Origin: Candidatus Dojkabacteria bacterium UBA2022
GTDB lineage: Bacteria; Patescibacteriota; Dojkabacteria; SC72
Assembly: GCA_002335495.1 (NCBI GenBank)
Contig: DDBW01000014.1
Location: 9,831-73,830, forward strand
DNA length: 64,000 nt
Direction: 5' to 3'
This document shows, piece after piece, positions 1 to 16,230 of this stretch (the first letter of the stretch is position 1; every line of letters begins with the position of its first letter). The position numbers and the translations under genes were made by a program. Under the pieces are notes generated by a model that was not told the origin of the DNA, made no database searches, and saw only the letters and a list, made by a program, of their open reading frames with translations.

Positions 1-1
1 T

Positions 2-313
2 TCTATCCAAATAAACCCTTATTTACTCAAATATCCAATTTCATATTTGGCATCAGGGTTGGTGGGAGTACCTATGATTGGAATAGCAATTAATTCAATG
101 GGAAATAACTCTAATTCGGCTCTCGAATTTCTTTCTCAATTTATGATTGGTACTAGTGGATTCTTAGCAGGCAGTTTTTCCTTACATTTATTAAGTAAAA
201 TAATAAAACCTGTGAAAAATTCAATTAAGCATACAATATACCATGAACTTGCCCATTATATTTCTAACGATTTTAAAGTAAAACGTTTTGGCTTATTTCA
301 GCTTTCTCAATAA
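2..313 (+). CDS. 3' end of a gene that starts upstream of the window; C-terminal fragment with HExxH motif (possible membrane metalloprotease)
   Basis: The frame is open from base 2 to the stop at 311-313. The translated tail contains YHELAHY (HExxH) after a hydrophobic stretch. No start codon can be defined inside the window. Confidence 0.35.
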   Translation, partial: SIQINPYLLKYPISYLASGLVGVPMIGIAINSMGNNSNSALEFLSQFMIGTSGFLAGSFSLHLLSKIIKPVKNSIKHTIYHELAHYISNDFKVKRFGLFQLSQ

Positions 314-449
314 TTATATTTGATTAAAAATTTTCTGGGTAGATTGTGGGAAGAAATAAGAAAGTCTTTAATTACTTATTATTTAGCCGTACATTATCTT
401 TAGTTTACAGATTCACCTTTTATACTTTTTACAATATAATAAAAATATT

Positions 450-1256
450 ATGGATAAATACGTAATATTTTTAATAGTCCTTGTTTCGCTCATAGTACTC
501 ACTTTTTTGTTACTAGAAACACTTGTGTTTTTTATAGTTAACGATTTATCTATCCCTACAATAACTCTCTCAAAAGATATTAAGAGAGTACTAGTAATTT
601 ACCCACATCCTGATGACGAGATATTAATTACAGGAGGTTTTATGAAAAAACACTCAAAAGATAGAGAAATTACTTGGGTGGTACTATCAAAGGGTGAACG
701 AGGGACGCCTAATGCAGTTCTTAATGAGAACCTCAAAGAAATACGGGCAGACGAGGCAAAAAGGGTTTCAGAATTACTAAAAGTTAAAAGTTTTTCACAT
801 TACGATTTTAAGGATAATGAAATGGAAACACAGGAAGAGAAACTAGAGAAGAAAGTACAACAAATCGTTAAAGATTCTAATCCCGATTTAATAATTACTT
901 ACGACACCGCAGGGCTATATGGTCATCCAGATCATATTATTACTTCTGAAATAGTTACAAAGATTGCAGAAGAAAAGAATATAAAACTCTGGTATGCAAC
1001 AAACGCCAAAAGAGTACTTGATATGGCTTCATTACCTGAGCATATGGCAAAAGACCCTAACTTCAAGGATAAAAGAAAGTATCCAAATGTTAAAGTATTT
1101 GTAGGATTAGAGGGAAGTATAGCAAAGAGTAAGGGAATAAGCATATATGAAAGTCAATTGCAGTCATTCGTATCAGCTTATCCAATAAAGTGGATACCAT
1201 TGCCTATATACAACTTACCAATGGTTTACGAATATTTTTATCAAGTTAACGAATAG
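450..1256 (+). CDS. PIG-L/LmbE family N-acetylglucosaminyl deacetylase
   Basis: N-terminal TM helix. Motifs VIYPHPDDEILITGG and GHPDHI are typical of PIG-L (GlcNAc-PI de-N-acetylase/LmbE) zinc deacetylases. Confidence 0.8.
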   Translation: MDKYVIFLIVLVSLIVLTFLLLETLVFFIVNDLSIPTITLSKDIKRVLVIYPHPDDEILITGGFMKKHSKDREITWVVLSKGERGTPNAVLNENLKEIRADEAKRVSELLKVKSFSHYDFKDNEMETQEEKLEKKVQQIVKDSNPDLIITYDTAGLYGHPDHIITSEIVTKIAEEKNIKLWYATNAKRVLDMASLPEHMAKDPNFKDKRKYPNVKVFVGLEGSIAKSKGISIYESQLQSFVSAYPIKWIPLPIYNLPMVYEYFYQVNE

Positions 1257-1553
1257 CTTATTGTATAAACTTGAAAGTATTGCAAAACCCATTATGGGGG
1301 AATGTTAGAATTTTGGGGTCGCAAAACAGGACGTTTTCGACCTTTTGATTAAAAAGATTATACCACTGGCAAAAGAGCTTAAAAAGGTACAAAAAGACTA
1401 CTATGCATTTATGGAGATTGCGGATAAATTACCCAATAGCACAATAGATTACAAACTTTAGATATTAGATCCCAGAATTTCTATGACCTATTAGAGGGTA
1501 TTGCGGAGTGAGTACTACTTGTTGTTTAATAAACTAGACTAGTTTAAGAAACT

Positions 1554-1676
1554 TTATTTCTTCTTTTTGTCACTTCTTGTCTTTCTCCAAGCTCCAGATT
1601 TAGTTCTGGATCTTGGTTGTTTTCCTCCACCTTCATCTTTGACGTGCGGAATCCTACCAGCTCTTCTATCTGCCAT
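1554..1676 (-). CDS. small (40 aa) highly basic protein, unknown function
   Basis: Hand-translated minus-strand ORF MADRRAGRIPHVKDEGGGKQPRSRTKSGAWRKTRSDKKKK. A strong SD (GGAAAGGAGGT) lies 8 nt upstream of the ATG. It is absent from the ORF track because it is under 60 aa. Confidence 0.4.
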   Translation of the reverse strand: MADRRAGRIPHVKDEGGGKQPRSRTKSGAWRKTRSDKKKK

Positions 1677-1761
1677 ATATCTAACCTCCTTTCCAACGAC
1701 TCCTCACTCCGCATTTAATTATATCCAATTGTTACGAGAATATTAAATAACTATAGAGAAC

Positions 1762-1790
1762 TTCCAAATTTCATCTTCGAAAGATATAAT
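1762..1790 (+). promoter_or_regulatory. candidate sigma70-like promoter upstream of the res-ATPase-mod-AlbA_2 operon
   Basis: TTCCAA, then a 17 nt spacer, then TATAAT ending about 28 nt upstream of the res ATG. The -35 match is weak. Confidence 0.3.
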
Positions 1791-1817
1791 AGAGAAATAT
1801 TTACCTAATGCATAAAA

Positions 1818-4466
1818 ATGAAACTTAAGTTTGAAGCTAACCTACAGTACCAGAAAGATGCAATAAACTCAGTAGTGAAGTTATTTGAAGGTGCTCCATA
1901 CATAAGACCCGAAGATAGAATCTCTCAAGAAGTCTCCCCGAACATTTTAAAGATCACACAAGAAAAAATATTTGAGAATTACAACAAAATAGTTACCGAA
2001 AGTCTCATCGATGAAGGTAAACAAGCAAAGAATAGTGACCTATTGGATTTTTCAGTTGAAATGGAAACTGGAACTGGAAAAACTTACATATATTTGAGAA
2101 CTATCCTAGAGCTATATAAAAACTATGGTTTAACAAAATTCTTAATCGTTGTACCAAGTATTGCAGTAAAAGAAGGAGTTATCAAAACTTTAGATATGAC
2201 GAAAGACCATTTCAATGAGTTATTCAACGAAAAGATCCAATACTTCGAATATGACAGTAAGAAATCTACGAGAGTAAGGCATTTCGCCTACAGTAATACA
2301 CTTCAAGTAATGGTGATCAATGTTCAAGCATTTAATGCAGATGACAACATTATCAATCAAGAAAGAGATGTAAATAACGGAGCGAAACTAATTGATTTGA
2401 TCAAAGCCATAAGACCTGTTGTGATAATGGATGAACCTCAAGAAGGAATGGATAGTAAAAATATGGAGAAGAGATTCAATCAGTTAGATCCACTATTTAA
2501 GATTAGATACTCAGCCACACATAAAAAGCCAATAAACCTAGTCTACAGACTCACTCCTTATGAAGCATACAATCAGGGATTAGTTAAAAAGATTGAAGTG
2601 TACTCAATCCACGAAGAGAATACCCAAAGCAATGTTGAGATTGAGTTTAAAGAGATTAAATATACTTCAGCTAAACCAGAAGCAAAGTTACAAGTAAACT
2701 ATAAAGTTGGAACCGATTTCAAAACTAAAGACGGTTATTTCAAAGAATTAGACAACTTGGAAGAGAAAACTAAAAATCCCGCCTACAAAGGATGGATCAT
2801 TGAAAGAATATACAAGGATCTAATGGATAACACTGAGAAAGTGAAATTCAGTAACGGAATTGAATTAACAAGAGGCTCAAAACACGGATGGGATAAAGAA
2901 TCTATCTTTAGGGAACAGATACGCTGGACTATAAAAAGACATTTCCAAAAGAAAGAACAATACAAAGATCTAGGAATTAAAGTCCTATCTCTATTCTTCA
3001 TTGATCGAGTAGCAAACTATGTAAATGCAGAGGGGATTATCAAAAAGCTTTTCATTGAACTATATAAACAAGAATACAAAGATAAGTACGGGAAAGAACC
3101 TGAGAATGTTGATCAAGTACACAATGGATACTTTGCAAAAACCAAATCAGATGAATATACCGACAATGTTAACTCAATGCAGAAAAACAAAGAGATCTAC
3201 AACCTAATTATGAAAGATAAAGAGAGATTATTATCTTTTGAAGAACCATTAGAATTTATATTCTCTCACTCCGCACTAGGTGTTGGTTGGGATAATCCCA
3301 ATGTATTCCAAATATGTACCCTAAATGAATCACATAGTGAGGCTAAAAAGAGACAAGAGATAGGTAGAGGTTTAAGAATATGTGTTGATAAAACAGGTGA
3401 AAGATATAGAGATCCTGATACAGTCACAGAAGGACAAGAAATAAACCTTCTAACCGTAATCCCAAATGAAAGCTATCACGCATTTGTAACACAATATCAA
3501 GATGAAATTATCGAAGAGACTGGAGATACAAGAGCAACTAAAGTACGAAATGCGAAAAAGGGTGCAAACAAAATTGGAATTAACAAAGATATTTTAAACA
3601 GCGATGACTTCCAGAACTTATGGAAGAAGATACAGAAGAAAACAAAATTTATGGTCTCCTTTAGAGAACAAGAGTTGGTAGATAAATGTGTAGATGAACT
3701 TAGTTCAATAGTTGTAAGGGAGCAAATTATTCAGACCCAAGCAATACAAATTAAGAGTCTAAGTGAATCACAAGACATAAACCAGAATATCCTCACAAAA
3801 GGAGAAACTTCAACAAAAGCAAAGAGTTCTGTTGCCAATATTGATCTAATTGATCAACTATCTGAACAAACTTCTTTAAGTATTAAAACTGTAATTGAGA
3901 TACTAAGCAAGATTTCAAATCAAAGTATGCTTACTAAAAATCCAGTTGTATACCTTACAGAAGCAGTTAAAAGAATTAAACGAGTACTAAATACTGAAAT
4001 GGTAAGAGTTATTAGCTATCAACCTACTAATGAGGAATTCCCAATTGAAGATTTCGAGAAGTTCGATCCTCAGACATACAACGATGTAGTACCAGCACGT
4101 AAAGGGGTCTATGACGCCGTAGAATACGATTCAGCAATCGAAAAAGACTTTGTACTAGATATAGACCAAGAAAACAAAGTAAAGGCATTTGTGAAGCTAC
4201 CAAAATGGTACAAAATTGAAACACCTATTGGTACTTACAATCCAGACTTCGCTTTAGTAATGGAGAAAAAAGATCTTGAAAAAGGTGGAGAAACAAAATA
4301 CTACTTTGTAATTGAAACAAAAGGTACAGACGATATTAACGAGCTAAAAGATGAAGAGAAAATGAAGATTCAGTGTGCTATTAAACATTTTGAAGCAATT
4401 GGCTTTGAAAAATATATGGCACCTGTAAAGAATCTAAATAGCTTTAAGAGTAAGGCAAATATTTAA
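1818..4466 (+). CDS. res: Type III restriction enzyme Res subunit (SF2 helicase plus C-terminal PD-(D/E)xK nuclease)
   Basis: Helicase motif I METGTGKTY and DEAD-like VIMDEPQ. Type III Res-like length of 882 aa. C-terminal nuclease signature NPDFALV...YYFVIETKG. Confidence 0.8.
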   Translation: MKLKFEANLQYQKDAINSVVKLFEGAPYIRPEDRISQEVSPNILKITQEKIFENYNKIVTESLIDEGKQAKNSDLLDFSVEMETGTGKTYIYLRTILELYKNYGLTKFLIVVPSIAVKEGVIKTLDMTKDHFNELFNEKIQYFEYDSKKSTRVRHFAYSNTLQVMVINVQAFNADDNIINQERDVNNGAKLIDLIKAIRPVVIMDEPQEGMDSKNMEKRFNQLDPLFKIRYSATHKKPINLVYRLTPYEAYNQGLVKKIEVYSIHEENTQSNVEIEFKEIKYTSAKPEAKLQVNYKVGTDFKTKDGYFKELDNLEEKTKNPAYKGWIIERIYKDLMDNTEKVKFSNGIELTRGSKHGWDKESIFREQIRWTIKRHFQKKEQYKDLGIKVLSLFFIDRVANYVNAEGIIKKLFIELYKQEYKDKYGKEPENVDQVHNGYFAKTKSDEYTDNVNSMQKNKEIYNLIMKDKERLLSFEEPLEFIFSHSALGVGWDNPNVFQICTLNESHSEAKKRQEIGRGLRICVDKTGERYRDPDTVTEGQEINLLTVIPNESYHAFVTQYQDEIIEETGDTRATKVRNAKKGANKIGINKDILNSDDFQNLWKKIQKKTKFMVSFREQELVDKCVDELSSIVVREQIIQTQAIQIKSLSESQDINQNILTKGETSTKAKSSVANIDLIDQLSEQTSLSIKTVIEILSKISNQSMLTKNPVVYLTEAVKRIKRVLNTEMVRVISYQPTNEEFPIEDFEKFDPQTYNDVVPARKGVYDAVEYDSAIEKDFVLDIDQENKVKAFVKLPKWYKIETPIGTYNPDFALVMEKKDLEKGGETKYYFVIETKGTDDINELKDEEKMKIQCAIKHFEAIGFEKYMAPVKNLNSFKSKANI

Positions 4467-4471
4467 AAACT

Positions 4472-5929
4472 ATGTTTATAAAAAAGGCAACAATAAAAAA
4501 TTACAGAATATTTTCCTCAAGTGAGGATTTTATTATTGATAATATAAACGTACCAGATAATTCAAATGTTGGCAGTGGATTAACAATTCTTGTTGGAGAC
4601 AACGGTTGTGGAAAATCATCCATTCTTGAAGGAATATCTTTGCCAGTTCTATCATATAAATCTGAATCCTTTTGTTTAGAAGATCTAAACGACTTAGACT
4701 CTAAATGCGAGATAAAATTGTTTGCTAATTCGAATTTTGAAGTAAAAGGGAGTCTCCCTAATAAATCCAAACCAACTTTTCAAGCACAAGGTTTTGAATT
4801 TATAGGAAATATTAGAACTCGAGACAACAAATCATATTTAACACCATTAATTGTTTCAGATCAAAAGTTTATAAGAGCAGATGGTTTAGATAAGCCAGAA
4901 GATAGCAGTCCAGATTTAAGGGTAAACGTTAACAACCCCTTTAGCGGTAATCGTTTTACTGATAATGATTATCTATATCTAGACAAGAATAGGACATTCC
5001 AAACAAGGAATGGTACTTATAATACAACAAAATTTGACAGATTAATGGACAATTTTAATTTTCAATATCTAAAGTCGGTAGAAGAAGCCGAAAAAACGGA
5101 TATAAACGAATCCGTTAGACAAACAACTATCTCAAAAGTATCTAACACATTTTTGCAAAATTCATTTGAAAAGTTTAAAGAAATCTCTGGATACGACTTA
5201 TCCTTAAATATGATTTCATCTTTAGAGCCATTTAAACATGCAAGCATTGGTGATAACAGAGATAACTTACAACAAATAAAATTGTCTGCGTTAGGTTCTG
5301 GCTATGAGATGATCTTTACCCTTTTGTACAATTTTTATTTGTCACAACAAGCAGGAAAAGATTTAATTATACTTATTGACGAGCCCGAATTGCACCTTCA
5401 TCCAAAACTACAAGAAAAATTAGTAGAGGTTTTACTAGAATTTTCAAAAACTAGTCAAATAATTATTACTTCCCATTCACCAATCCTCGTAAAACAGCTA
5501 TGTGTAAATGACAAAGTCGAAACAAAGATAATCAAACTGGGTAACGGTGTTCCAGAATTGTCGTCAATAAATGAGAAGTTATTACCATACGATTCAGCAA
5601 ACGAAATAAACCACTTAGCTTTTGACTTCCCAACGCCAGAATATCACGATGAACTATATGGGAGATTGCAGGAGTTATTATTGTGCTTTGACGAAGCTAG
5701 CATAGAAACAGCTTTAGTTAGAGATCATAGTATTAGCAAGACAAAAAGATGGCAGCGGGAAAAAAATGGCGCGGTAAGTGGAGCGGAGTATGATATAACA
5801 CTTCAATCTTTTATCAGAAATAAACTTCACCATCCAGAAAATATTACTATGCAGAGTAAAAAGTTTACGACTAATGAGTTAGAGCAATCAATCAATGAGA
5901 TGCGAGTAATAATTAAATCGCTTATTTAA
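4472..5929 (+). CDS. ABC-type (AAA_21/AAA_15-like) ATPase with a distinct C-terminal domain carrying an R-x4-H (RNKLHH) HEPN-like motif; PrrC/RloC-like architecture
   Basis: Walker A GDNGCGKSS; degenerate signature LSALGSGYE; Walker B/H-loop LIILIDEPELHLHP; ITSHSP D-loop-like segment. The C-terminal roughly 130 aa have no Toprim motifs but contain IRNKLHHPEN. A 6-nt gap follows res and an 18-nt gap precedes mod. Confidence 0.6.
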   Translation: MFIKKATIKNYRIFSSSEDFIIDNINVPDNSNVGSGLTILVGDNGCGKSSILEGISLPVLSYKSESFCLEDLNDLDSKCEIKLFANSNFEVKGSLPNKSKPTFQAQGFEFIGNIRTRDNKSYLTPLIVSDQKFIRADGLDKPEDSSPDLRVNVNNPFSGNRFTDNDYLYLDKNRTFQTRNGTYNTTKFDRLMDNFNFQYLKSVEEAEKTDINESVRQTTISKVSNTFLQNSFEKFKEISGYDLSLNMISSLEPFKHASIGDNRDNLQQIKLSALGSGYEMIFTLLYNFYLSQQAGKDLIILIDEPELHLHPKLQEKLVEVLLEFSKTSQIIITSHSPILVKQLCVNDKVETKIIKLGNGVPELSSINEKLLPYDSANEINHLAFDFPTPEYHDELYGRLQELLLCFDEASIETALVRDHSISKTKRWQREKNGAVSGAEYDITLQSFIRNKLHHPENITMQSKKFTTNELEQSINEMRVIIKSLI

Positions 5930-5946
5930 GTTTATGAGTAGTAAGA

Positions 5947-7824
5947 ATGAATAAAACATATAAACAGTCAGAAGACCTATACAAAGAGAAGGTTGAGCAA
6001 TTAAAAGCCATTTATCCTGCACTCTTTAGCGATGAGGGTAATTTAAATGAAGATGAGCTAAGAAACTTTCTAAAGCAGTTCGCTTCTACCTCTGAAGGCA
6101 AATATGAGTTTAACTGGGCAGGGAAAATGACTGCGAAAAGAAATGCTTTTACTACTTCAAGAGCAATGTTAAAACCAGACAAAGATAGAAGTATTGATTT
6201 TGATAAAACAGAAAACTTAATTATCGAAGGAGATAACTTAGAAGTATTAAAACTACTTCAGAAATCGTACCAAGGAAAAATCAAATGCATTTATATTGAT
6301 CCTCCATACAATACAGGAAACGACTTTATCTATACGGATAACTTTTCAGAAGAGAAGAAGGCATACTGGGAAAAGTCAGGTACAACACAAGATGGAGTGA
6401 AGTTAGACACAAATACAGAATCACAAGGGAGATATCATAGCAACTGGTTGAATATGATATATCCAAGATTACTACTTGCTAGAAATCTGTTAAGGGAAGA
6501 TGGTGTGATTTTTATCAGTATTAATGACTTTGAAGTTCATAATCTAAAGAAAGCAATGGATGAAATATTTGGAGAAGAAAACTTTATCGCCCAATTAGTT
6601 TGGGAGAATAAAGAAGGTGGAGGTAGTTCAGATAGCAAACTTTTTAGGATTAAACACGAATATTTGCTTTCATACACAAATAATAAAAATATCGTCAATA
6701 TCAAGGGTGAAATCAAAGGTGAAGACAATAGTTATACATATGAAGACGAATATCTATCTAAACGTGGTAAATACAAACTAATAAAGCTTAATAGCTTCAG
6801 CGTACAGTACTCTCCGTCACTTGACTACGAAATATTACTCCCAAACGGGGAAAAGGTTATGCCTAGTGAAAATGGGAAAAGAGGATGTTGGCGTTGGTCT
6901 AAAGAAAAGCTAGATTGGGGAATAAGAAATGGTTTTATTGAATTTAAAGAAAATTCAGAAGGTAAGTTATGGGTCTATACAAAGCAGTATTCTAAGGTTG
7001 ATAACGAAGACAAACCAATAATTCGAGAGTTACCCTTTAGAGGAGTAATCAGTAAATATTCCAGTACCAAGGCAACAAAACAACTCGAACAATTAATGGG
7101 GTTAAAATTATTTGATTATTCGAAGCCTTTCGAGCTAATAAAGTTTATATGTACAATATCCTCAGACAAAGACTCAATCGTTTTGGACTTTTTTGCAGGT
7201 TCAGGCACTACGGCACAAGCTGTAATGGAATTAAATAAAGAAGATCGTGGTAACAGGAAATTTATACTTGTACAAATACCAGAAAAAACAGATGAAAACA
7301 GTGAAGCTTACAAAGCAGGATATAAAAAAATATCAGATATATGTATCGAAAGAGTAAAACGAGTATCTAAGAAATTATCAGAAGAAAAAGCTACAGGAGA
7401 TCTAGGGTTTAAAGTCTTTACATTATCTCCAAGTTATTTCCCTGAAAACCTCTTTACACCAGATCCAGAGAAGACAGAAGAAGAAAATAAAAAAGCATTG
7501 GCAAAATACATAGAAGAAGCATCCACACAATTGGAATTCAAATTTGACGAGTTTGATTTAATGTATGAGGTATTACTTAAAGACGGATTTACACTAAACT
7601 TTAAAGCTGGGAAGTTATCTGAATTTCCTAAGAACAATATCTATAAAGTTACGGACGGTGAAAAACACGCTCTAGTGACCCTTGATCCCGATTTAAAGGA
7701 CGAAACCCTACAAAAGCTACAAAGTTACACTGAAGAAAGATTCATTTGTTTAGAGAGGGCTGTAGACACTACGAAGAAGTGGAACTTACAGAATATGTTT
7801 GGGAGTAATCTTTGGGTAATTTAA
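5947..7824 (+). CDS. mod: Type III restriction-modification Mod subunit (beta-class N6-adenine DNA methyltransferase)
   Basis: Motif IV DPPYNTG precedes motif I FFAGSGTT, with a target-recognition region between them. At 625 aa it is adjacent to res. Confidence 0.85.
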   Translation: MNKTYKQSEDLYKEKVEQLKAIYPALFSDEGNLNEDELRNFLKQFASTSEGKYEFNWAGKMTAKRNAFTTSRAMLKPDKDRSIDFDKTENLIIEGDNLEVLKLLQKSYQGKIKCIYIDPPYNTGNDFIYTDNFSEEKKAYWEKSGTTQDGVKLDTNTESQGRYHSNWLNMIYPRLLLARNLLREDGVIFISINDFEVHNLKKAMDEIFGEENFIAQLVWENKEGGGSSDSKLFRIKHEYLLSYTNNKNIVNIKGEIKGEDNSYTYEDEYLSKRGKYKLIKLNSFSVQYSPSLDYEILLPNGEKVMPSENGKRGCWRWSKEKLDWGIRNGFIEFKENSEGKLWVYTKQYSKVDNEDKPIIRELPFRGVISKYSSTKATKQLEQLMGLKLFDYSKPFELIKFICTISSDKDSIVLDFFAGSGTTAQAVMELNKEDRGNRKFILVQIPEKTDENSEAYKAGYKKISDICIERVKRVSKKLSEEKATGDLGFKVFTLSPSYFPENLFTPDPEKTEEENKKALAKYIEEASTQLEFKFDEFDLMYEVLLKDGFTLNFKAGKLSEFPKNNIYKVTDGEKHALVTLDPDLKDETLQKLQSYTEERFICLERAVDTTKKWNLQNMFGSNLWVI

Positions 7825-7828
7825 TAGT

Positions 7829-9085
7829 ATGGAAATATTAAGAAGAGATATTAAAAATATATCTTTTGACGAAATAGTTGAATTTTGTAAACTAGGGTAT
7901 CCTGAGGGATCCCAATTAGACTATAAGAAGAAATTTAGTGAAAACTTCTGGAGTAATGAACTTCAAAAAGATGTTGCATCCTTTGCAAATATGCAGGGAG
8001 GGATAATAATAGTTGGAGTAAAAGAGGATAAAACAACGGGAAAACCAAAAGAATGGGAGGGGATAGAAATTAATGCAGAAGAAATTGATAGGATCGACAG
8101 AATAGTGGCAAATATGACCCCATTGCCACACGCGGAATCTCACTTAATTCCTAACGAAGAGAATACTAAATGTTTTTTAGTAATACGTATTCTTGAGGGT
8201 TCGAATAAGCCTTATTATGCTAATAATGATCCTATTGAATGGATAAGAACGGGAAAAGTAAAAACACCGATTGAACCTGCTTCGCCTCAATACAAAAAAT
8301 ATCTATTTGACGATAAGAATAAAGCTTCAGAACAAAGGAAATTTCTACTTGAATATGCAAACAAGATATTTAAAGGGCATACTTTTAATAGATTTGAAGA
8401 AATGCTTTTAAATGGGGAACTGGATCACTCAGTCATAGGCAGTGTACATCCAGATTTTGATAAAACCAAAGCGAGACTACAAATAGCAATCCTCCCTTAC
8501 AATCCAAATAAGACATTGATAACACCAAGCTCATTAAAAGATAAAATATACAATATTCGGATCTCAGAAGGGATTACAGATTTCCCAATAGTAAATTGGG
8601 CTTTCCAGACAACACCGAAAGGAATATCAACGTTTGTACATCTAGACAACGATCAAACAATTAATATGCAAATTTTTGGAGAAGGTTTAATATTTTTTTC
8701 GTATGACATATGTCAAGAAAAAGAGACTGAAAAGAATATCTGGCAAGGTTTTAGTCTTCCGGTAATATTGAAATACACTCATTTATCACTTAAATTGGCT
8801 GAAAGTTTGTACAGAAATCTAGGATATCAAGGAGAATTGTTAAGCAAAATAGAGATAGCGAATGTTATTGGACTTAATGCTTGTAGTGATTTACATAGCT
8901 CTCAATACAAGAAAGCCCTTCTCTATAGCTATAATTGGGATATATTGTTTAATACATACTCAATATCAAATGAAGATGAGTACTGGAAAACGTTTGCCGA
9001 ATTTGGTAAATCCGTTTATGAAAGCTTTGATTTTAGCTGGGTCACTCCGGATAAAATAAAAGAATATACTATGTCTAGTTGTTAG
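7829..9085 (+). CDS. AlbA_2 (Schlafen-core-like putative DNA/RNA-binding) domain protein with an uncharacterised C-terminal domain
   Basis: N-terminal roughly 130 aa match the AlbA_2 pattern (ISFDEIVEFCKLGYPEGSQLDYKKKF...ASFANMQGGIIIVGVKED...EEIDRIDRIV). It starts 5 nt after the mod stop, so it sits in the same operon. Confidence 0.65.
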   Translation: MEILRRDIKNISFDEIVEFCKLGYPEGSQLDYKKKFSENFWSNELQKDVASFANMQGGIIIVGVKEDKTTGKPKEWEGIEINAEEIDRIDRIVANMTPLPHAESHLIPNEENTKCFLVIRILEGSNKPYYANNDPIEWIRTGKVKTPIEPASPQYKKYLFDDKNKASEQRKFLLEYANKIFKGHTFNRFEEMLLNGELDHSVIGSVHPDFDKTKARLQIAILPYNPNKTLITPSSLKDKIYNIRISEGITDFPIVNWAFQTTPKGISTFVHLDNDQTINMQIFGEGLIFFSYDICQEKETEKNIWQGFSLPVILKYTHLSLKLAESLYRNLGYQGELLSKIEIANVIGLNACSDLHSSQYKKALLYSYNWDILFNTYSISNEDEYWKTFAEFGKSVYESFDFSWVTPDKIKEYTMSSC

Positions 9086-9121
9086 GCTTTATATTCTATT
9101 AAATAGTAATATAATTTAGCT

Positions 9122-9403
9122 ATGCATAAGACGGAGGAATCAGTAACAAAACAACAAAAGCCAAAACTTTCTGAAATAGCTAAAAAGAAGATGGAAGAAA
9201 TCTTCATAAAACAGAAAAAAGATCCCAAAGAGGATCCTGCTAAAATATATCTTCAGCTATTAAACCAGTACGAACCTCCTGTTGACGAAGACGATGAAGA
9301 TGACGAGAATACTGATAACTCATTAGAAGACTATACTTTCTTTAATAACGACGGAACTAAGTTCAAAGAGCTACCTAAAAATGAGAGGGTTAAGACAAAA
9401 TAA
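9122..9403 (+). CDS. small hypothetical protein with a strongly acidic C-terminal segment (DEDDEDDEN)
   Basis: ORF with a Lys-rich N-terminus and an Asp/Glu run. No recognisable motif. Confidence 0.35.
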   Translation: MHKTEESVTKQQKPKLSEIAKKKMEEIFIKQKKDPKEDPAKIYLQLLNQYEPPVDEDDEDDENTDNSLEDYTFFNNDGTKFKELPKNERVKTK

Positions 9404-9716
9404 AGATCAGATTGTCGAACTCCTCCACGATTACATCGTATTAGGTTACAGTATCAATAAATCTTGTCAGTACATAGGAATTCCGCACACAACAGTTCAT
9501 ACTTGGATAAACAACGATCCAGAGGTTCGTATGAAAATTAACTCTTGGAAAAACATTGTAAATCTTGAAGCAAGAAAAAGAATTGTCGAAAAAATAGTAA
9601 ACGGAGATATCAAAGCAAGTATGTGGTGGCTAGATAAGTTTGATTATATTGAAAACTCAAATGAAGAGAAAAGTAATCAATTAAGCATCGAAATAAATGG
9701 CAGAAAAGTATATTAA
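9381..9716 (+). CDS. small HTH DNA-binding protein, terminase-small-subunit-like (alternatively an excisionase/RDF-like protein)
   Basis: HTH-like segment YSINKSCQYIGIPHTTVHTWINNDPEV followed by the ASMWWLDKFDY motif, reminiscent of phage small terminase/HTH proteins. It overlaps both the upstream ORF and the recombinase start. Confidence 0.35.
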   Translation: MRGLRQNKDQIVELLHDYIVLGYSINKSCQYIGIPHTTVHTWINNDPEVRMKINSWKNIVNLEARKRIVEKIVNGDIKASMWWLDKFDYIENSNEEKSNQLSIEINGRKVY

Positions 9717-11385
9717 CGAAATCGCAGAAGAAGAGTTAAGAATCTATTGCGAAGAAGTTAGAAAGATCAATTTGCGAAGGCGTGGAATCTATATTCCCCC
9801 AGAGGAGAAACTGAGATATGTACTATATGCAAGAAGATCAACAAAATCTTCTCCCAAGGAAAGATTAGATAAAGCCACGTCAAGAGAAGAAAGAAAAAAA
9901 CTAGATAAACAAGAAAGGTCTATTCCAGATCAAATCAGTGAATGTTTGAAATTAGCACAAAAAGAAGAGCTACAAGTTGTTTTGATAGTGCAAGAAGAAG
10001 GATCAGCATATGCAAAGGATAATCGAAAGAAGTTTGATAAGATGATCAATGATATAAAAATTGGTAAATACGATGGGATAATTGCTTATGCACCAGATAG
10101 ATTAGCAAGAAATATGAAAGAAGCTGGTGAAATGCTTGATATGGTAGAAGAAGGAGTTATCAAAGATCTTAAATTTCCGACATTCCATTTTGAACGAGAA
10201 ACAAATTCAATGCTCTCGCTTGGACTAAACTTCTTACTCGCAGAAAACTATTCAACAAACCTTTCATATCACACAAAAAAGGCAAATGAAGGGATTATCA
10301 AAGAAGGAAAGGGAATAAGAAATTCAAAACTTGGATACATACTAAATAAAGATCGTTACTTTAGACCAGATCCAGATAATTTTGAAAAAGTAAAAACATT
10401 ATTCAATTTAGGATTAGAAGGGAGAACTTTAATTGATATTGTAGACATAAGTAAAAGACTTGCAATAACTTTCAATGGAAAACTACGAGTATTTACGACA
10501 CAAAATCTATCTAGTCTCTTACGGGATCCATTTTATGCAGGAAAACATCTTAATGGAACCCAAATAATTGACCTAAAAGCAATCGATAAAGACTTCACAC
10601 CTATGATTACTGCTCTAGATTTTACAACCATTAGAAGGCACTACGACAAATTAAGTAGTCGAAGAAAATCGAAAACCAAAGAGCCACTGTTCTTTACTGG
10701 ACGCGTAATTTGTAACAATTGTGCGAAGTTATGCTCAGCAGGAAAAAGTACAAGCGGAAGTGGACATAAATATCTGTGGGTTAATTGTACAAACAAGGAA
10801 TGCAAGCACAAAGTAAGAATTAGGGGAACAGATCTTCTTAAATATTCTGGAAAAATACTGACCAATCTTTCAAAGAGAATAACCAAGGAAGATTTCGATA
10901 AATTTGTATCACAAGTGAAGAAAGAACAGCCTGAAAGACTTGATCGTTTACAATACAAACATATTTCACTTAGTCAGGAAATCAATGAAAAGAAGGAAGA
11001 AATCAGTGCGAAGGAAAAGCAAAATATGCGAAAGGACTTAAGCCTAGAAACAAAAAAATTGATTAATATTGAAATTAGTAAGCTTTATTCTGAGTTGAAC
11101 AAATTAAACTCGGAAAGAGAGGAAATAAAGAATGACCTTCTTATATTGAAGGTAAACTTAGGAACAGAATTAGAGTCTTTAGAAAAGTTTTCGACCTTTT
11201 TAAAAGAGGCCGACAATACAATAAAAACCAGTCATAATAAGTACAAGGTAGACAAAATCATAAAAATGGCATTTTCGACCTATGTCGTAGAGGGCAAAGA
11301 TATTGTAGCATATAAACTTAAATCACCACTTGAGGGGTACAAAAATCTCGATAGTTTCTTGAATGGGGTGGAAGATGGGACTTGA
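9697..11385 (+). CDS. large serine recombinase (integrase-type)
   Basis: Catalytic-region motifs YARRST and DGIIAYAPDRLARN. A Cys-rich zinc-ribbon segment CNNCAKLC...CTNKECKHK. A long C-terminal coiled coil. The last 22 nt overlap the 3' end of tRNA-His. Confidence 0.7.
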   Translation: MAEKYINEIAEEELRIYCEEVRKINLRRRGIYIPPEEKLRYVLYARRSTKSSPKERLDKATSREERKKLDKQERSIPDQISECLKLAQKEELQVVLIVQEEGSAYAKDNRKKFDKMINDIKIGKYDGIIAYAPDRLARNMKEAGEMLDMVEEGVIKDLKFPTFHFERETNSMLSLGLNFLLAENYSTNLSYHTKKANEGIIKEGKGIRNSKLGYILNKDRYFRPDPDNFEKVKTLFNLGLEGRTLIDIVDISKRLAITFNGKLRVFTTQNLSSLLRDPFYAGKHLNGTQIIDLKAIDKDFTPMITALDFTTIRRHYDKLSSRRKSKTKEPLFFTGRVICNNCAKLCSAGKSTSGSGHKYLWVNCTNKECKHKVRIRGTDLLKYSGKILTNLSKRITKEDFDKFVSQVKKEQPERLDRLQYKHISLSQEINEKKEEISAKEKQNMRKDLSLETKKLINIEISKLYSELNKLNSEREEIKNDLLILKVNLGTELESLEKFSTFLKEADNTIKTSHNKYKVDKIIKMAFSTYVVEGKDIVAYKLKSPLEGYKNLDSFLNGVEDGT

Positions 11386-11441
11386 ACCCACAACCCTCGG
11401 TTCCACAAACCGATGCTCTAACCAATTGAGCTACTCCCACC
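11364..11441 (-). tRNA. tRNA-His (anticodon GTG), with encoded G-1 and 3' CCA
   Basis: Hand-folded cloverleaf: G-1 opposite C73, acceptor GTGGGAG/CTTCCAC, D-stem GCTC/GAGC, anticodon loop TTGTGGA, T-loop TTCAAGT, CCA encoded. Confidence 0.8.
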
Positions 11442-11562: not shown

Positions 11563-12069
11563 ATGGGTAAAACAGCAACAATCCTTTTTATAACAGGTGC
11601 AATGATAGCATCTGGATGCTCAGCAGCAGAAGCACCCGTTGTATACGAGACCCCAACCCGAGTACCAAACCTAGAGCCAGCAGAACTCCTAATCCCTAAA
11701 ACAATGGTAATAAATCATAATGACAAGGCACTTGAATTCTATTTACCAGGGATTGCATACAGATCATTCATACCAGAAGGAGGCATACTAGAAAAGCTAT
11801 TCACTTCCGCTGATGAAGGAGCAGTTAGCCTTGATCAAGCATTTGAAACTCACCCAACAGGATACACTCTTTCACCATACCACCTCCTCAGAGTACTAAG
11901 ACCAGATGGAATCGAAGAAGACTACACCACCACCGAAGGATCATTTGCCATAACCTTTGCAGATGAAAACCTAGACCCCGTGGTGTACATCATTGAAGTA
12001 GCCAGGGATAGAACCGCAGTTGAAGTAGGGCGGGTAGTAAACCCAGCTAACGACCTAGTCCTTCCTTAA
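11563..12069 (+). CDS. putative lipoprotein
   Basis: Signal peptide with lipobox IASGCS. No other recognisable domain. Confidence 0.5.
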   Translation: MGKTATILFITGAMIASGCSAAEAPVVYETPTRVPNLEPAELLIPKTMVINHNDKALEFYLPGIAYRSFIPEGGILEKLFTSADEGAVSLDQAFETHPTGYTLSPYHLLRVLRPDGIEEDYTTTEGSFAITFADENLDPVVYIIEVARDRTAVEVGRVVNPANDLVLP

Positions 12070-12122
12070 CCCAATATCAACAATCTCATTAAAAAACCAT
12101 CCTTAGATGGTATAATTACCAT

Positions 12123-12596
12123 ATGAAAATAATAACAGTAGAACAAGATGAAAAAACTCTAAGAAAGGTATCAAAAGATATCCCAATAGAAGAAATAAAC
12201 ACACCCCAATTCCATAAGTTCCTTGAAGACATGAAAGAAACCGCCTCCAACGCACCAATGCCCAAGGGATGGGAACCAGCAGGCCTTGCCGCCATACAAG
12301 TAGGGGAGGATAAGAAAGTATTCATAGCAATAGACATAGACACAGGAGAATTCAAAGAATACATTAACCCAAAGATTAAGGTAATAGGAGATAAAGAAAG
12401 CATAGACCTAGAAGGATGCCTCAGCATACCCAACACCACAGGATACGTAAAAAGACCAAAGAAAGTTAAAATAACATACCTCGACCGCTTCGGAGTATCC
12501 CACACTGAAAGACTCTCAGGCTTTAACGCCAAAATAGTACAACACGAAAACGACCACCTCCTTGGCATACTATTTACAGACAAACTAGAAAAGTAA
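12123..12596 (+). CDS. def: peptide deformylase
   Basis: Conserved PDF motifs GLAAIQVG, EGCLSIP and HENDHLLG. Confidence 0.85.
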   Translation: MKIITVEQDEKTLRKVSKDIPIEEINTPQFHKFLEDMKETASNAPMPKGWEPAGLAAIQVGEDKKVFIAIDIDTGEFKEYINPKIKVIGDKESIDLEGCLSIPNTTGYVKRPKKVKITYLDRFGVSHTERLSGFNAKIVQHENDHLLGILFTDKLEK

Positions 12597-14230
12597 TGGC
12601 AATAAACCATAACTTAACAGACAAAGAAACCCGCAAAGCCAAAATCGCCCAAATCACATACGCAACCATAGCCGTTGCCCTCACAATCTTCGCCATATAC
12701 TCCAACATAGAAAAACCAGAAGAGAAAAAGGATAACAAAACTCAACCTAAAACAACAATCTGCACCATAAACACCCTAGAACCAACATACACCCAAACCC
12801 TGGAAAAATACGCCACAGAGAATAACGCAGAAATTCTCGGCAACAACCCAACATGCGACATAACCATAGCCAGAAACGTAAAGGATATAAACACCTACAA
12901 CCGCCTCACCACCAAGACCTACGCCCTTGTAGCCCGCTATGACACAACCCTAGAGAGCATCACAACCCAGGAACTCATGGCCCTGCTAACAACCCAAAGT
13001 AATAATCAGAAAACAATAGTCTGGGATACTCAAACAGATCAATTCATAAGATCAACCTTTGAAAGTATCGGAGTAGGGCAGAGAGTAGTACAAAAAGACG
13101 AAATCAAGCAAGAAATCCTCAAATCCACAAACACCCTTGCCATAATCCCCTTTGAAGAGATAACCCTCGCATACAAAGTAATCTCCATAGATAACCTCAA
13201 CCCCATCTCCAAAGACTTCAACACCCTTAGATACCCCCTCATAGACAGATACTGGATCAAAGGAGATGAAAACACCACCAAGAAAGTATCAGAATACATA
13301 AAAACAACCATACCAGAAACCAACATCAACCCCTCACAAATAACAACCCTCACCCTAACAGGATCATCCGCCGTAGGAAGTGGCATCCAACAATCCCTAT
13401 ACACGACCAAAGGAATAGACTACATAAACCCAACCATACAAAACCTCATCAAAGAAAGTGACATAGCACAGATCAACAACGAAGCCTCCCTAGCCACCCC
13501 ATGCGTGCAAACCGAAAACACAACTAAATATTGCACCACCGAAAACAACCTCAAACTAATCAAAGACCTCGGTTTTGACGTAGTAGGGGTGAACGGAAAC
13601 CACATCATGGATATATCATACGAAAGATACCAAGAAACCCTCCAATGGTATGCCAAAAATAAACTCGAATACTACGCCGGAGGAACTAACTCAGAAGACG
13701 CATGGACCCCAAGGGTAGTAGAAGCCAATAAACTCAAATTCGCCTTCATCGGCTTTAACTACCTATACCCCTTCAGCTACTACGCCACCAAAAACACCGC
13801 AGGCAGTGCCAACGTAAACATGGAAATAATGAAAACAACCATAGAAAAAGCCAAGAAACTCGCTGACATAGTAGTTGTAGACATGAGCTGGGGATATGAG
13901 TACGACACCGACCTTCTATCGTACCAAACCGAATACGCTAATGCCGCAGTACAGTATGGTGCCAACATAGTAATCGGAACCAACAGCAGAATATATCAAC
14001 AAACCCAAATAACAGATAAATCAATGATCTTCTACGGCCTAGGATCTTTCCTCCCTCACACATACAAAGACTCCCAGTCCGCCATCTACACCCTCACATA
14101 CTATAAAGATAAACCCATTAACCTAAAAATAACCCCAATTAAACTCAATAACCAAACCGTTACAACTCTCGAAGGATCAGAACTAGATTCAACCCTCCAG
14201 AAAGTGTATAGTAATATAAAGATAAACTAA
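12596..14230 (+). CDS. CapA/PGA_cap family metallophosphatase-like protein (poly-gamma-glutamate capsule synthesis family) with an N-terminal membrane anchor
   Basis: N-terminal TM. C-terminal half carries a PGA_cap-like pattern (VGVNGNHIMD, FIGFNY, IVVVDMSWGYEY, ANIVIGTNSRIYQ, FYGLGSF). Confidence 0.65.
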   Translation: MAINHNLTDKETRKAKIAQITYATIAVALTIFAIYSNIEKPEEKKDNKTQPKTTICTINTLEPTYTQTLEKYATENNAEILGNNPTCDITIARNVKDINTYNRLTTKTYALVARYDTTLESITTQELMALLTTQSNNQKTIVWDTQTDQFIRSTFESIGVGQRVVQKDEIKQEILKSTNTLAIIPFEEITLAYKVISIDNLNPISKDFNTLRYPLIDRYWIKGDENTTKKVSEYIKTTIPETNINPSQITTLTLTGSSAVGSGIQQSLYTTKGIDYINPTIQNLIKESDIAQINNEASLATPCVQTENTTKYCTTENNLKLIKDLGFDVVGVNGNHIMDISYERYQETLQWYAKNKLEYYAGGTNSEDAWTPRVVEANKLKFAFIGFNYLYPFSYYATKNTAGSANVNMEIMKTTIEKAKKLADIVVVDMSWGYEYDTDLLSYQTEYANAAVQYGANIVIGTNSRIYQQTQITDKSMIFYGLGSFLPHTYKDSQSAIYTLTYYKDKPINLKITPIKLNNQTVTTLEGSELDSTLQKVYSNIKIN

Positions 14231-14235
14231 GCTAA

Positions 14236-15477
14236 TTGCCCACTGTGAAAAAATATATACTACTAACAATTACGATCTTAACAGTAATTCTCTCACCTAT
14301 ATCCCAAACCTTTGCAGCCACCCAGAACGAAATCAATACAACCCTAACCACCCTTGAAGATGAAAGAAGAGCCAAACTTGAGAAAGAACTAGGACTCACC
14401 ATCCCACAGATCTCAGACAACCCAAACCACATAATCACCTTTAGAGACCCTTCCAAAGAAGGAGTAGGGGTTAAACTGGAAATAGACGGACAAGGCTTTA
14501 AGAAAGTCTCAAGCCCATACACCCTCCCATCCCTTGGAATAGGAAAGCACATCCTCACCTTCAAGTTCACAGACTCAGAAGAGACCGAACAAACCCTTGA
14601 AGAAACTATCACCATTATCCCACGCCCTGCAATAATAGATGCCCCCGAAAAAATTACAACCACAGAACTATCCTTCAAAGGAACAGCCCTTGCCGCATCA
14701 ATCGTTGACCTATACCTCTCATCGGGTACTAAACACTATAAAGCAGCCCCAGATGTAAATAACGATGGAAGCTGGAGCTATACCTTCAAAGGAGAATTTG
14801 AATACGGCATATACAATATTGTTGCCGTTACAAGGAAGAACGGATATACCAGTAACTTCTCTGAAACAATTGTCTTCGAACTCACAAAAGAAGGAGCCGG
14901 ATCAAATAACAATAGCAATAGTGTAAAACCAATTTCCTTCAGCTTCGACAGCCTTCTTAAAAGCGACCCTATGACAACAATTAAGAATAACCTCGACCTG
15001 CTATACCTAACATTGGGATCCCTGCTCACCGGTATTATATTAACAGCCATATTTACCAAAATAGCAGATGGAAAACAGCATAAAAACCTCGAGGGAGTCT
15101 TCTTAAAGAAGTACGCTCAAAAAACGGAGAAGCCATCAAAAGAGGAGAAGAAAGAATCCAAGCCAATGACCCTCAGAGAAAAGTTTGAGCAAGCGGGACT
15201 TGCAAAAGAAGAGAAGAGTGTAGAGAAAAAAGACGAAGAAAAAAAGGAAGAAGAAAAGAAAGATGAGAAAAAGGAAAGTAAAAAAGAGGAGAAAGAGAAG
15301 AAGGATGAAAAGAAAACTCTTAGCAAAGAAGAATTTTTAGAGGAATTCAAAGAACAGGATCCCGACAATGAAAGAGGTAAGGAGCCTGCAAAAGAAGAAG
15401 AGAAGAAGAAAGAGAAACCATCTAGCCTAATGAACAGTATTAAAATATCTCTAACCTCCAAGCCAAGCAAGAAGTAG
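14236..15477 (+). CDS. secreted/membrane-anchored surface protein with a beta-rich (Ig-like) ectodomain, a C-terminal TM helix and a Lys/Glu-rich cytoplasmic tail
   Basis: Signal peptide, beta-strand-rich ectodomain, TM helix LLYLTLGSLLTGIILTAIF, then an EKKEEEKKDEKK low-complexity tail. The start is either TTG at 14236 or GTG at 14245. Confidence 0.5.
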   Translation: MPTVKKYILLTITILTVILSPISQTFAATQNEINTTLTTLEDERRAKLEKELGLTIPQISDNPNHIITFRDPSKEGVGVKLEIDGQGFKKVSSPYTLPSLGIGKHILTFKFTDSEETEQTLEETITIIPRPAIIDAPEKITTTELSFKGTALAASIVDLYLSSGTKHYKAAPDVNNDGSWSYTFKGEFEYGIYNIVAVTRKNGYTSNFSETIVFELTKEGAGSNNNSNSVKPISFSFDSLLKSDPMTTIKNNLDLLYLTLGSLLTGIILTAIFTKIADGKQHKNLEGVFLKKYAQKTEKPSKEEKKESKPMTLREKFEQAGLAKEEKSVEKKDEEKKEEEKKDEKKESKKEEKEKKDEKKTLSKEEFLEEFKEQDPDNERGKEPAKEEEKKKEKPSSLMNSIKISLTSKPSKK

Positions 15478-16230
15478 ATGAAAAAGGTAATAGTAACCGG
15501 AGATGACGGATATAAAGCAGTAGGACTTAAAGTTCTTGCACAAGCCCTTAAAAATGATTTTGAAGTTACAATCATTGCCACTAAAGAACAGAAAAGTGGA
15601 GCAGGTGGCAGTGTAAAAGCCTATGGAGAGAAAGAGTGGGGGATGGAGATAGTGGATGGCATCAAGTCATACTGGGTAGACGGAACCCCAGCAGACTCTA
15701 TGGAGTTTGCCCAAGGAGTATTCCCAAACGGCGTAGACTATTTGATCTCCGGAATTAACTGGGGAGAGAACATAGGCCTAAGTACTTTCACAGCATCAGG
15801 AACAGGAGGCGCCGCCCTTAGAGGATACTCCTTAGGAATTGCTCCAAAAGCCATTATAATGAGCTGGCTTAAACCTAACTCAGAGAACGATTGGTGGGAG
15901 GATAAAAGTTCTGAAGAAGTAGAACCATTCCTACAATACCCAGGTGGAAGCGCACTACACGTAGTAAAGGAAGCAATTAAAAACTCTTTTTGGAATAAAG
16001 ACATAGTAAATGTAAATTTCCCGCCAAACCCAACCCAGGATTATAAAGTAACCAAACTCCTAAAACACCTACCGGACTTCTATAAATACCCCGTAATAAT
16101 AAAAGAGAATACCTATGAGTACGACAAAGAAGTATTTGCATACACACAACAAACCAAAGAAAATACAACCCTTGATGTAGGAGCCATCCTATCAGGATAT
16201 ATCTCAATAACCCCTGTAACGATAGAATAA
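15478..16230 (+). CDS. surE: 5'/3'-nucleotidase SurE family
   Basis: SurE motifs VTGDDGY, GTPADS, SGINWGENIG...SGTGGAA, and C-terminal GYISITPV. Confidence 0.8.
   Translation: MKKVIVTGDDGYKAVGLKVLAQALKNDFEVTIIATKEQKSGAGGSVKAYGEKEWGMEIVDGIKSYWVDGTPADSMEFAQGVFPNGVDYLISGINWGENIGLSTFTASGTGGAALRGYSLGIAPKAIIMSWLKPNSENDWWEDKSSEEVEPFLQYPGGSALHVVKEAIKNSFWNKDIVNVNFPPNPTQDYKVTKLLKHLPDFYKYPVIIKENTYEYDKEVFAYTQQTKENTTLDVGAILSGYISITPVTIE

Follow-up and report, generated by a model that had tools for sequence, protein, structure and literature searches.

Here we describe a gene of Candidatus Dojkabacteria bacterium UBA2022 (assembly GCA_002335495.1), at 4472-5929 on the + strand of a 64,000-nucleotide (nt) stretch of contig DDBW01000014.1 (positions 9,831 to 73,830; this whole stretch is hereafter the window), that probably encodes a single-polypeptide defence effector in which an OLD/SMC-type ATP-binding cassette (ABC) ATPase, acting as sensor and switch, is fused to a predicted HEPN endoribonuclease. 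The open reading frame (ORF) has an ATG start and encodes 485 amino acids (aa). A preliminary description of this DNA, made from the sequence by eye, had proposed a PrrC/RloC-like latent anticodon nuclease encoded within a restriction-modification (R-M) locus; the ORF and all the motifs quoted there are present, and the gene does sit between restriction and modification genes, with a Type III Res upstream and a Type III Mod downstream.

The N-terminal domain is an intact OLD-type ABC ATPase

The ATPase head (4472..5506, residues 1-345, with a helical insert at ~187-239) retains Walker A, Walker B, signature and H-loop. Walker A reads GDNGCGKSS (4595..4621, residues 42-50, including the invariant K48), the signature-like LSALGSGYE lies at 5282..5308 (residues 271-279), the Walker B and D-loop block, LIILIDEPELHLHP, spans 5363..5404 (residues 298-311, in which E304, P305, E306 and H310 are invariant), and the H-loop region ITSHSP is found at 5465..5482 (H335, followed by S336, which is conserved at 98%). 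K48, G275, G277, E304 and H310 are invariant across 59 non-redundant family members, the two glycines belonging to a GxG variant of the signature that has already been described for the NsnB OLD-ABC ATPase (PMC12065111).

A Pfam scan of the window protein (E<=0.01) listed AAA_21, AAA_15, SMC_N, AAA_23 and DUF2813, of which AAA_21 (2.8e-23, 83.9 bits, cut-off 27) and AAA_15 (6.2e-23, 82.5 bits, cut-off 32.1) lay above their gathering thresholds, while the SMC_N and RecF matches were weak, sub-threshold and confined to the P-loop region. AAA_13 (PF13166), the family of PrrC and RloC, was absent from the matches at that threshold, and no PrrC or RloC model stood among the top 25 PADLOC matches, the best of which were NsnB (Menshen; 1.6e-26), AriA (PARIS), PtuA (Septu/retron), GajA and Old. 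Sequence matches in the PDB were of the same kind, namely PtuA and retron ATPases, AriA and an OLD nuclease. Structurally, the insert of the head is modelled as three short helices (187-202, 212-222 and 226-239) over ~50 residues, and neither a long coiled coil nor a CxxC zinc hook is found in the 485-aa sequence or its model. The same Pfam scan returned no Toprim, DUF4435, HNH or PD-(D/E)xK domain anywhere in the protein, so that the preliminary view of the tail as something other than Toprim is borne out.

One segment of the head behaves differently from the rest of it. Residues ~140-190 (window ~4889-5041) are near-invariant within the close subfamily, with the pattern 'SPDLRVNVNNPF.G.RF..ND.L.LDKNRT.QTR.G.YN.T.FDRLM', and are unconserved across the wider family, with a model confidence (predicted local distance difference test, pLDDT) of 55-76. 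Lying in Insert-1 of the ABC fold, this segment may serve the subfamily as a specific surface for interaction or sensing.

The C-terminal tail has a predicted HEPN-like fold and a conserved catalytic-type motif

The C-terminal domain (5579..5926, residues ~370-485 as delimited on the predicted structure) was modelled with a pLDDT of 92.6 as five helices (376-384, 389-403, 408-419, 444-453 and 467-484) with a beta-meander insert at 423-443. The model contains the four-helix up-down bundle of HEPN domains, in which helices 2 and 3 are often separated by an insert. A survey of the superfamily reported that inserts are common at that position, that helix 2 bears a conserved acidic residue, and that N, D or H usually follows the arginine of the catalytic motif (PMC3710099), and the tail fits the first and third of these traits, with the meander preceding helix 444-453 and N450 after R449. 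E394 (5651..5653, within E-L-Y at residues 394-396), in helix 389-403, may be the acidic residue, if that helix is, as we presume, HEPN helix 2. The motif IRNKLHHPEN (residues 448-457), which had previously been placed at nt 5812-5838, a few bases off, occupies 5813-5842, and its R449-to-H454 part (5816..5833), delimited from alignments and predicted secondary structure, has R449 inside helix 444-453, H453 at the end of the predicted helix and H454 at the start of the following loop, which places the motif at the end of what would be helix 3 of the bundle.

Taken alone, an R-x4-H motif is not beyond chance, because an R-x4-6-H motif occurs at least once in 60% of shuffles of the window protein; it carries weight here because R449 and H454 are conserved across homologues. 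Specifically, none of R449, H453 and H454 varies among 40 close homologues (48-57% identity), and among the 59 non-redundant full-length members (24-55% identity) E378, E390, H392, E394, L395, Y396, R449, H453 and H454 are all invariant, that is, conserved as strongly as the Walker A lysine, while position 450 holds N in 93% of members, with H or T in the rest. When 26 more diverse tail fragments were considered, E394, L395, R449 and H454 were the only residues still invariant, and the expectation that RNKLHH would be conserved among homologues was thus upheld for its R and last H in all three sequence sets. A His/Glu cluster (E378, E390, H392 and H453) was considered as a metal-binding site and ruled out, since its residues do not stay constant once the most diverse sequences are aligned. 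Even a Klebsiella plasmid homologue with 27% overall identity retains FIRNHIHHPEN, and carries 'TLQSFIRNHIHHPEN...ELKQSIDEM'. Judged from these alignments, the invariant E394, R449 and H454 appear to be the counterparts of the acidic residue and the R-x4-H that make up an active HEPN site.

Existing family models say little of this region. None of the Pfam, NCBIfam and PADLOC models covers residues ~350-485; Pfam and NCBIfam leave the tail of the family unannotated, and PADLOC v2 is without a full-length model for it. In per-member Pfam scans of 28 C-terminal sequences, the KEN/RNase 2-5A model, a HEPN family, matched one member over helices 2-4 (E 0.0017) and HEPN_Apea matched one member over the motif (E 0.15), both below the curated cut-off.

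A widespread family that rides in several kinds of R-M operon

The family is uncharacterised, widespread and conceptually expected. Searched against 1.84 billion proteins, the tail profile matched at least 1045 clusters (50% identity representatives) at E<=1e-3, with 517 at E<=1e-10, and more than 1000 full-length homologues of the window protein were found. The tail forms the C-terminus of a ~450-560 aa protein in all full-length matches, and is fused to the ATPase in every locus retrieved. A contig profile search with the full-length alignment drew on generic ABC patterns and yielded three true family members only. Source annotations of the members go no further than 'AAA family ATPase' or 'predicted ATP-dependent endonuclease of OLD family'. 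Taxonomically, members occur in Bacteroidales, Ignavibacteriaceae, Ekhidna, Tunturiibacter (Acidobacteriota), Omnitrophica and Clostridia, in Woesebacteria, Uhrbacteria and Gracilibacteria of the Candidate Phyla Radiation (CPR), and on one enterobacterial plasmid.

To describe genomic context, 80 metagenome loci were retrieved with the tail alignment, ORFs were called, and neighbouring genes were clustered and the clusters named by Pfam, which gave Methylase_S, N6_Mtase/Eco57I, Type III Mod, ResIII, PLD-SNF2 helicase and C5+N6 methylase clusters. We then took a census of R-M genes within <=6 kb of 59 non-redundant members and of a subset of 20 loci with >=3 kb on both sides. R-M genes were found in 34/59 loci (13/20 of the well-flanked ones): Type I genes in 14/59 (5/20), Type III genes in 8/59 (4/20) and other methylase/helicase systems in 12/59 (4/20), with no R-M gene detected in the remaining 25/59, many of them short contigs (7/20); these counts are indicative only, because the sample of loci is not unbiased and the R-M detection profiles were built from the same loci. 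Evolutionarily, identity clustering of the 59 proteins produced five groups, of which 5/5 include Type III-linked and 4/5 Type I-linked members, so that the R-M type switches within every one of the sequence clusters. The Type III embedding had initially been put forward as a new pairing, a claim that is not supported within this family, where Type III contexts recur in all five clusters.

Most of the closest relatives, at 51-56% identity, belong to Type I loci. Writing X for the family gene, the order hsdM-hsdS-X-hsdR is found in P0026 and P0006, and in P0002 on a cut contig; in the Type I loci P0003 and P0007, X is flanked by additional genes on one side or both. The P0057 locus reads mod-res-X, and P0028, P0011 and P0087 are solo copies, without a detected R-M gene in the vicinity. 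The clustered neighbours of the retrieved loci yielded no small partner gene that is conserved, and an obligate small upstream partner was ruled out by upstream ORFs that are unrelated between loci. Overall, the family gene is recurrently linked, on the same strand, to R-M genes of more than one type. It acts like a modular rider on R-M operons that depend on ATP, be they Type I, Type III or Eco57I-type methylase plus helicase, and a solo existence is also possible for it.

Several individual loci deserve mention. In L039, L044 and L072 (genes -3 to -1), the family gene comes immediately 3' of the genes for a PLD-SNF2 helicase (~930-1060 aa) and an Eco57I/MmeI-type methyltransferase (~1100-1250 aa) with a TaqI_C specificity domain, and this combination resembles an R-M pair of a kind other than the classical Type I and Type III. 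The Type I loci L020 and L109 carry ABC-HEPN proteins from separate 90%-identity clusters, and in each a pair of neighbouring genes (606 and 571 aa; L020:9524-13062, L109:9524-13063) without a Pfam match lies 3' of the ABC-HEPN gene, in L020 between it and hsdR, with hsdR not called in L109; the pair may be a further embedded defence candidate. On the Klebsiella quasipneumoniae plasmid NZ_MN310379.1 (83459-84922; L108), a conjugative IncFIB plasmid, the homologue noted above (WP_064155835.1, 27% identity, annotated 'AAA family ATPase') is encoded by a solo gene between two ISNCY transposase genes, with a TIR-domain gene adjoining, an arrangement that resembles a composite transposon.

The gene lies in a probable four-gene operon on a putative integrative island

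In the window, the gene upstream (1818..4466, + strand) encodes a Type III Res of 882 aa with helicase and C-terminal endonuclease domains (Pfam ResIII and RE_endonuc; PADLOC REase_III, 8.4e-211), and the gene downstream (5947..7824, +) a Type III Mod methyltransferase of 625 aa (Pfam N6_N4_Mtase, 8e-37; PADLOC MTase_III, 3.8e-177). Together they show the superfamily 2 helicase and endonuclease domains and the N6/N4 methyltransferase that define Type III R-M. Next follows a Schlafen/AlbA_2-domain protein of 418 aa (7829..9085, +; Pfam SLFN_AlbA_2, 1.4e-14, N-terminal), the C-terminal remainder of which is unannotated and which has no PADLOC or NCBIfam match. The gaps are 5 nt from the res stop to the ATPase gene, 17 nt from the ATPase gene to mod and 4 nt from mod to the AlbA_2 gene. 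These four genes look like one operon, because no + strand terminator-like site falls in the intergenic gaps from res to the AlbA_2 gene, the single + strand match (4514-4527, a 5-pair stem) being inside the ATPase ORF. The AlbA_2 gene could be a second embedded effector, by analogy, since Schlafen-family RNases were found in a 2026 survey to be frequent back-up effectors embedded within BREX-type loci (PMC12839542).

The R-M region as a whole looks like an integrative island inserted at tRNA-His, because it combines a low GC content (0.32-0.34 versus ~0.39 in the remaining window; region 1-11440) with a large serine recombinase ORF (9697-11385, +) whose 3' end overlaps tRNA-His (11364-11440, - strand). 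Just upstream of the recombinase, and overlapping it, are two small ORFs (9122-9716, +), one of 93 aa with a highly acidic C-terminal half and one of 111 aa without a Pfam match, which may be candidate recombination directionality or regulatory factors of the island. Just beyond the island, at 12001-16000, there is unusually strong strand asymmetry, with an AT skew of 0.34-0.42 and a GC skew of -0.26 in the 12001-14000 block, reaching -0.39 at 12501-13500 in a finer profile; both skews are milder elsewhere in the window.

Relation to known ATPase-gated nucleases

PrrC, the anticodon nuclease of the E. coli EcoprrI Type Ic locus, whose gene lies between hsdS and hsdR, is the textbook suicide RNase that backs up restriction, and has been viewed as an oddity of Type I loci. 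The window protein resembles it in joining an N-terminal ABC ATPase to a C-terminal HEPN-type RNase domain (here predicted) with an R and an H, both essential in PrrC, in being encoded in an R-M operon, and in having many relatives at hsdM-hsdS-X-hsdR. It differs in that the window gene itself lies between Type III res and mod rather than hsdS and hsdR, in that its ATPase is an AAA_15/AAA_21 OLD-ABC protein and its tail a classical four-helix HEPN domain with RNx[IL]HH, and in that its family occurs with Type I, Type III and other R-M systems as well as alone, which makes masking by one particular complex unlikely. The likeness to PrrC and RloC thus holds as an analogy of design, given the ABC head, the conserved R-x4-H tail and the relatives at hsdS-X-hsdR, and fails as family membership, AAA_13 being unmatched, the coiled coil and zinc hook missing and the HEPN domain of a different type. 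RloC (PMC3710099; PMC3458546) is likewise an ABC ATPase with a HEPN RNase, often unlinked to R-M and self-regulated by its ATPase; it has a long Rad50-like coiled coil and a zinc hook, in contrast to the ~50-residue insert of the window protein, which lacks CxxC and AAA_13.

ABC-HEPN fusions beyond PrrC and RloC have been reported before from computational analysis, namely APECO1_4465 and ERFG_01251, the latter with a 'classical' HEPN domain (Anantharaman et al. 2013; PMC3710099). Compared by description only, ERFG_01251 has an extra N-terminal HEPN/Toprim-NTD1 domain of ~240 aa and a sporadic CRISPR linkage instead of the R-M linkage seen here, and APECO1_4465, likewise compared by description only, is prophage-borne and was grouped with PrrC and RloC. 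By its ATPase, the window protein is closest to GajA and OLD, with HEPN in place of Toprim: GajA (Gabija) and the class 1 and 2 OLD nucleases use a Toprim metal-dependent nuclease, as opposed to the HEPN RNase predicted here. PARIS (AriA/AriB), Septu (PtuA/PtuB) and Menshen (NsnB/NsnC) supply the closest sequence matches of the ATPase; in these systems an OLD-ABC ATPase senses infection and releases a nuclease, with PARIS sensing anti-restriction proteins such as Ocr, and a protein of its own (Toprim, HNH or PIN-like) serves as effector, in place of a fused HEPN-type domain. AriB of PARIS cleaves tRNA. DARNA (PD-T7-3) was set aside as unrelated, its HEPN domain being N-terminal and unaccompanied by an ATPase. 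More broadly, a 'guilt-by-embedding' study found ABC ATPase systems to be common passengers of R-M, BREX and Hma loci.

Proposed mechanism and alternative explanations

Functionally, we propose a mechanism modelled on GajA, PARIS, Septu, PrrC and RloC, for which we infer the RNase activity, its substrate, the oligomeric switch and the trigger. E394 together with R449-N450-x3-H454 would form the active site of a metal-independent endoribonuclease. The ABC heads would assemble into a homo-oligomer, whose ATP-dependent engagement or release would control the pairing of two HEPN domains, and the paired domains would build a composite active site. This would follow precedents in which a nuclease is gated by the ATP-dependent dimers or tetramers of GajA, AriA, PtuA and NsnB (PMC12065111; bioRxiv 10.1101/2024.01.29.577857), and in which HEPN RNases typically need to dimerise before their active site is complete (bioRxiv 10.64898/2026.02.22.705581). 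The RNase would be switched on by a sign of infection, most probably either a block to restriction or some other nucleic-acid or protein signal of phage attack, and the activated enzyme would cut cellular RNA, possibly tRNA anticodon loops, thereby aborting the infection. By analogy with PARIS, the cue could be an anti-restriction protein.

Several results weigh against this explanation. Neither sequence nor profile comparison gave a significant match of the tail to any established HEPN family, searching PDB sequences with HMMER profiles of the tail returned no HEPN match, and an hhalign comparison of the tail profile with the human IRE1 KEN domain (in a sequence confirmed as 100% identical to PDB 4z7g) aligned 15 columns around RNxxHH at a probability of 1.2%; this alignment, which pairs IRNKLHH with MRNKKHH, is a motif resemblance and no evidence of homology. 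A Foldseek search of the tail model against the PDB gave only noise, and the tail structures are themselves predictions. On the side of genomic context, the 25 loci lacking a detected R-M gene, many of them on short contigs, and the dependence of the R-M counts on a sample that is not unbiased and on profiles derived from it, point the same way. Of the HEPN-like tail first described, then, the modelled fold and the conserved R-x4-H stand, and a significant HEPN sequence or profile match is absent; we regard a HEPN fold with a catalytic-type motif as well supported by the predicted structure and by conservation, not by sequence statistics.

Such a tail might nevertheless be a non-catalytic docking or regulatory module, with the ATPase acting as a sensor that controls a nuclease in trans, for example Res or the Schlafen/AlbA_2 protein. 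The HEPN-clan matches of the tail do include non-catalytic KNTase C-domains, and parallels are available in DUF3696 of NsnB and in the substrate-binding HEPN-like domains of nucleotidyltransferases; OLD-ABC ATPases often regulate in trans, as in PARIS, Septu and Menshen (PMC12065111), and the AlbA_2 gene is in the same operon. However, the invariant residues are precisely the HEPN catalytic set (an acidic residue, R, a polar N, and H at x4), a motif that is typically lost in non-catalytic HEPN domains (PMC3710099), and a partner gene conserved across loci was not found and solo copies exist, so we consider this arrangement unlikely. Also improbable, in our estimate, is a true latent anticodon nuclease of the PrrC/RloC type, masked by the R-M complex encoded alongside it (Type III Res-Mod in this case) and freed by an anti-restriction protein. 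The shared design of ABC head and HEPN tail, the location between res and mod, and the presence of the closest relatives at the prrC position hsdM-hsdS-X-hsdR, some with extra genes around X, would all suit it, but AAA_13 is unmatched and the ATPase falls in the AAA_15/AAA_21 OLD-ABC group, and an obligatory, co-evolved masking interface is hard to reconcile with the switching of R-M type in every cluster, the 7/20 well-flanked loci without a detected R-M gene and the solo plasmid copy. Thus, because the R-M partner changes freely and solo copies exist, specific co-evolved masking in the style of PrrC and EcoprrI is less likely than autonomous sensing.

The remaining alternatives would direct the protein to DNA or remove it from defence altogether. 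An OLD/Gabija-like nuclease acting on DNA, or an accessory motor subunit of the R-M enzyme, could be argued from the closeness of the head to OLD, GajA and PtuA, which have DNase partners, and from the tight linkage to DNA-targeting systems. ABC-HEPN-type genes are missing from most Type I and Type III loci, and the gene is therefore dispensable for R-M in general; moreover, the protein has no Toprim, HNH or PD-(D/E)xK domain, and its tail resembles HEPN domains, the characterised members of which are RNases (PMC3710099), which makes a DNA-directed role very unlikely. As for a housekeeping repair ATPase of the RecF/RecN/SMC kind that is in the operon by chance, the weak SMC_N and RecF N-terminal matches around Walker A hint at it, but they are below the curated cut-offs and confined to the P-loop, and the gene is carried by a low-GC island, with a serine recombinase and tRNA-His close by; its family has a patchy distribution and sits in defence contexts. 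A RecF/RecN housekeeping role is accordingly rejected on the weakness and P-loop confinement of these matches, and we give the housekeeping explanation almost no credence. The explanation that we favour is still the single-polypeptide effector, with an OLD-type sensor fused to its own HEPN-type RNase.

A more ambitious form of this explanation is that the family constitutes a generic 'restriction sentinel', pluggable into any ATP-dependent R-M operon, that senses a shared signature of anti-restriction and cuts tRNA or other RNA. The cue would then be, for example, DNA-mimic proteins or stalled or failed restriction, instead of binding to one R-M complex, and the outcome a shutdown of translation. 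We offer this as a speculative extension that we would not ourselves bet on.

Implications

Judging from its domains, the family to which the window protein belongs appears to arrive at the design of PrrC with other components, its ATPase being of the OLD-type ABC kind and its tail a classical HEPN domain. If confirmed, the ABC-HEPN family would add a widespread single-gene system of abortive infection, and would mark the embedding of an ATPase-gated RNase in an R-M operon as a general solution reached by convergence. A further gain would be a tractable model for how riders sense failed restriction, in which point mutants of K48, E304, E394, R449 and H454 could be used. Finally, if the sentinel idea were true, the PrrC paradigm would extend from one Type Ic system to R-M generally, and would do so through an independently evolved protein family found in many phyla, including CPR bacteria.

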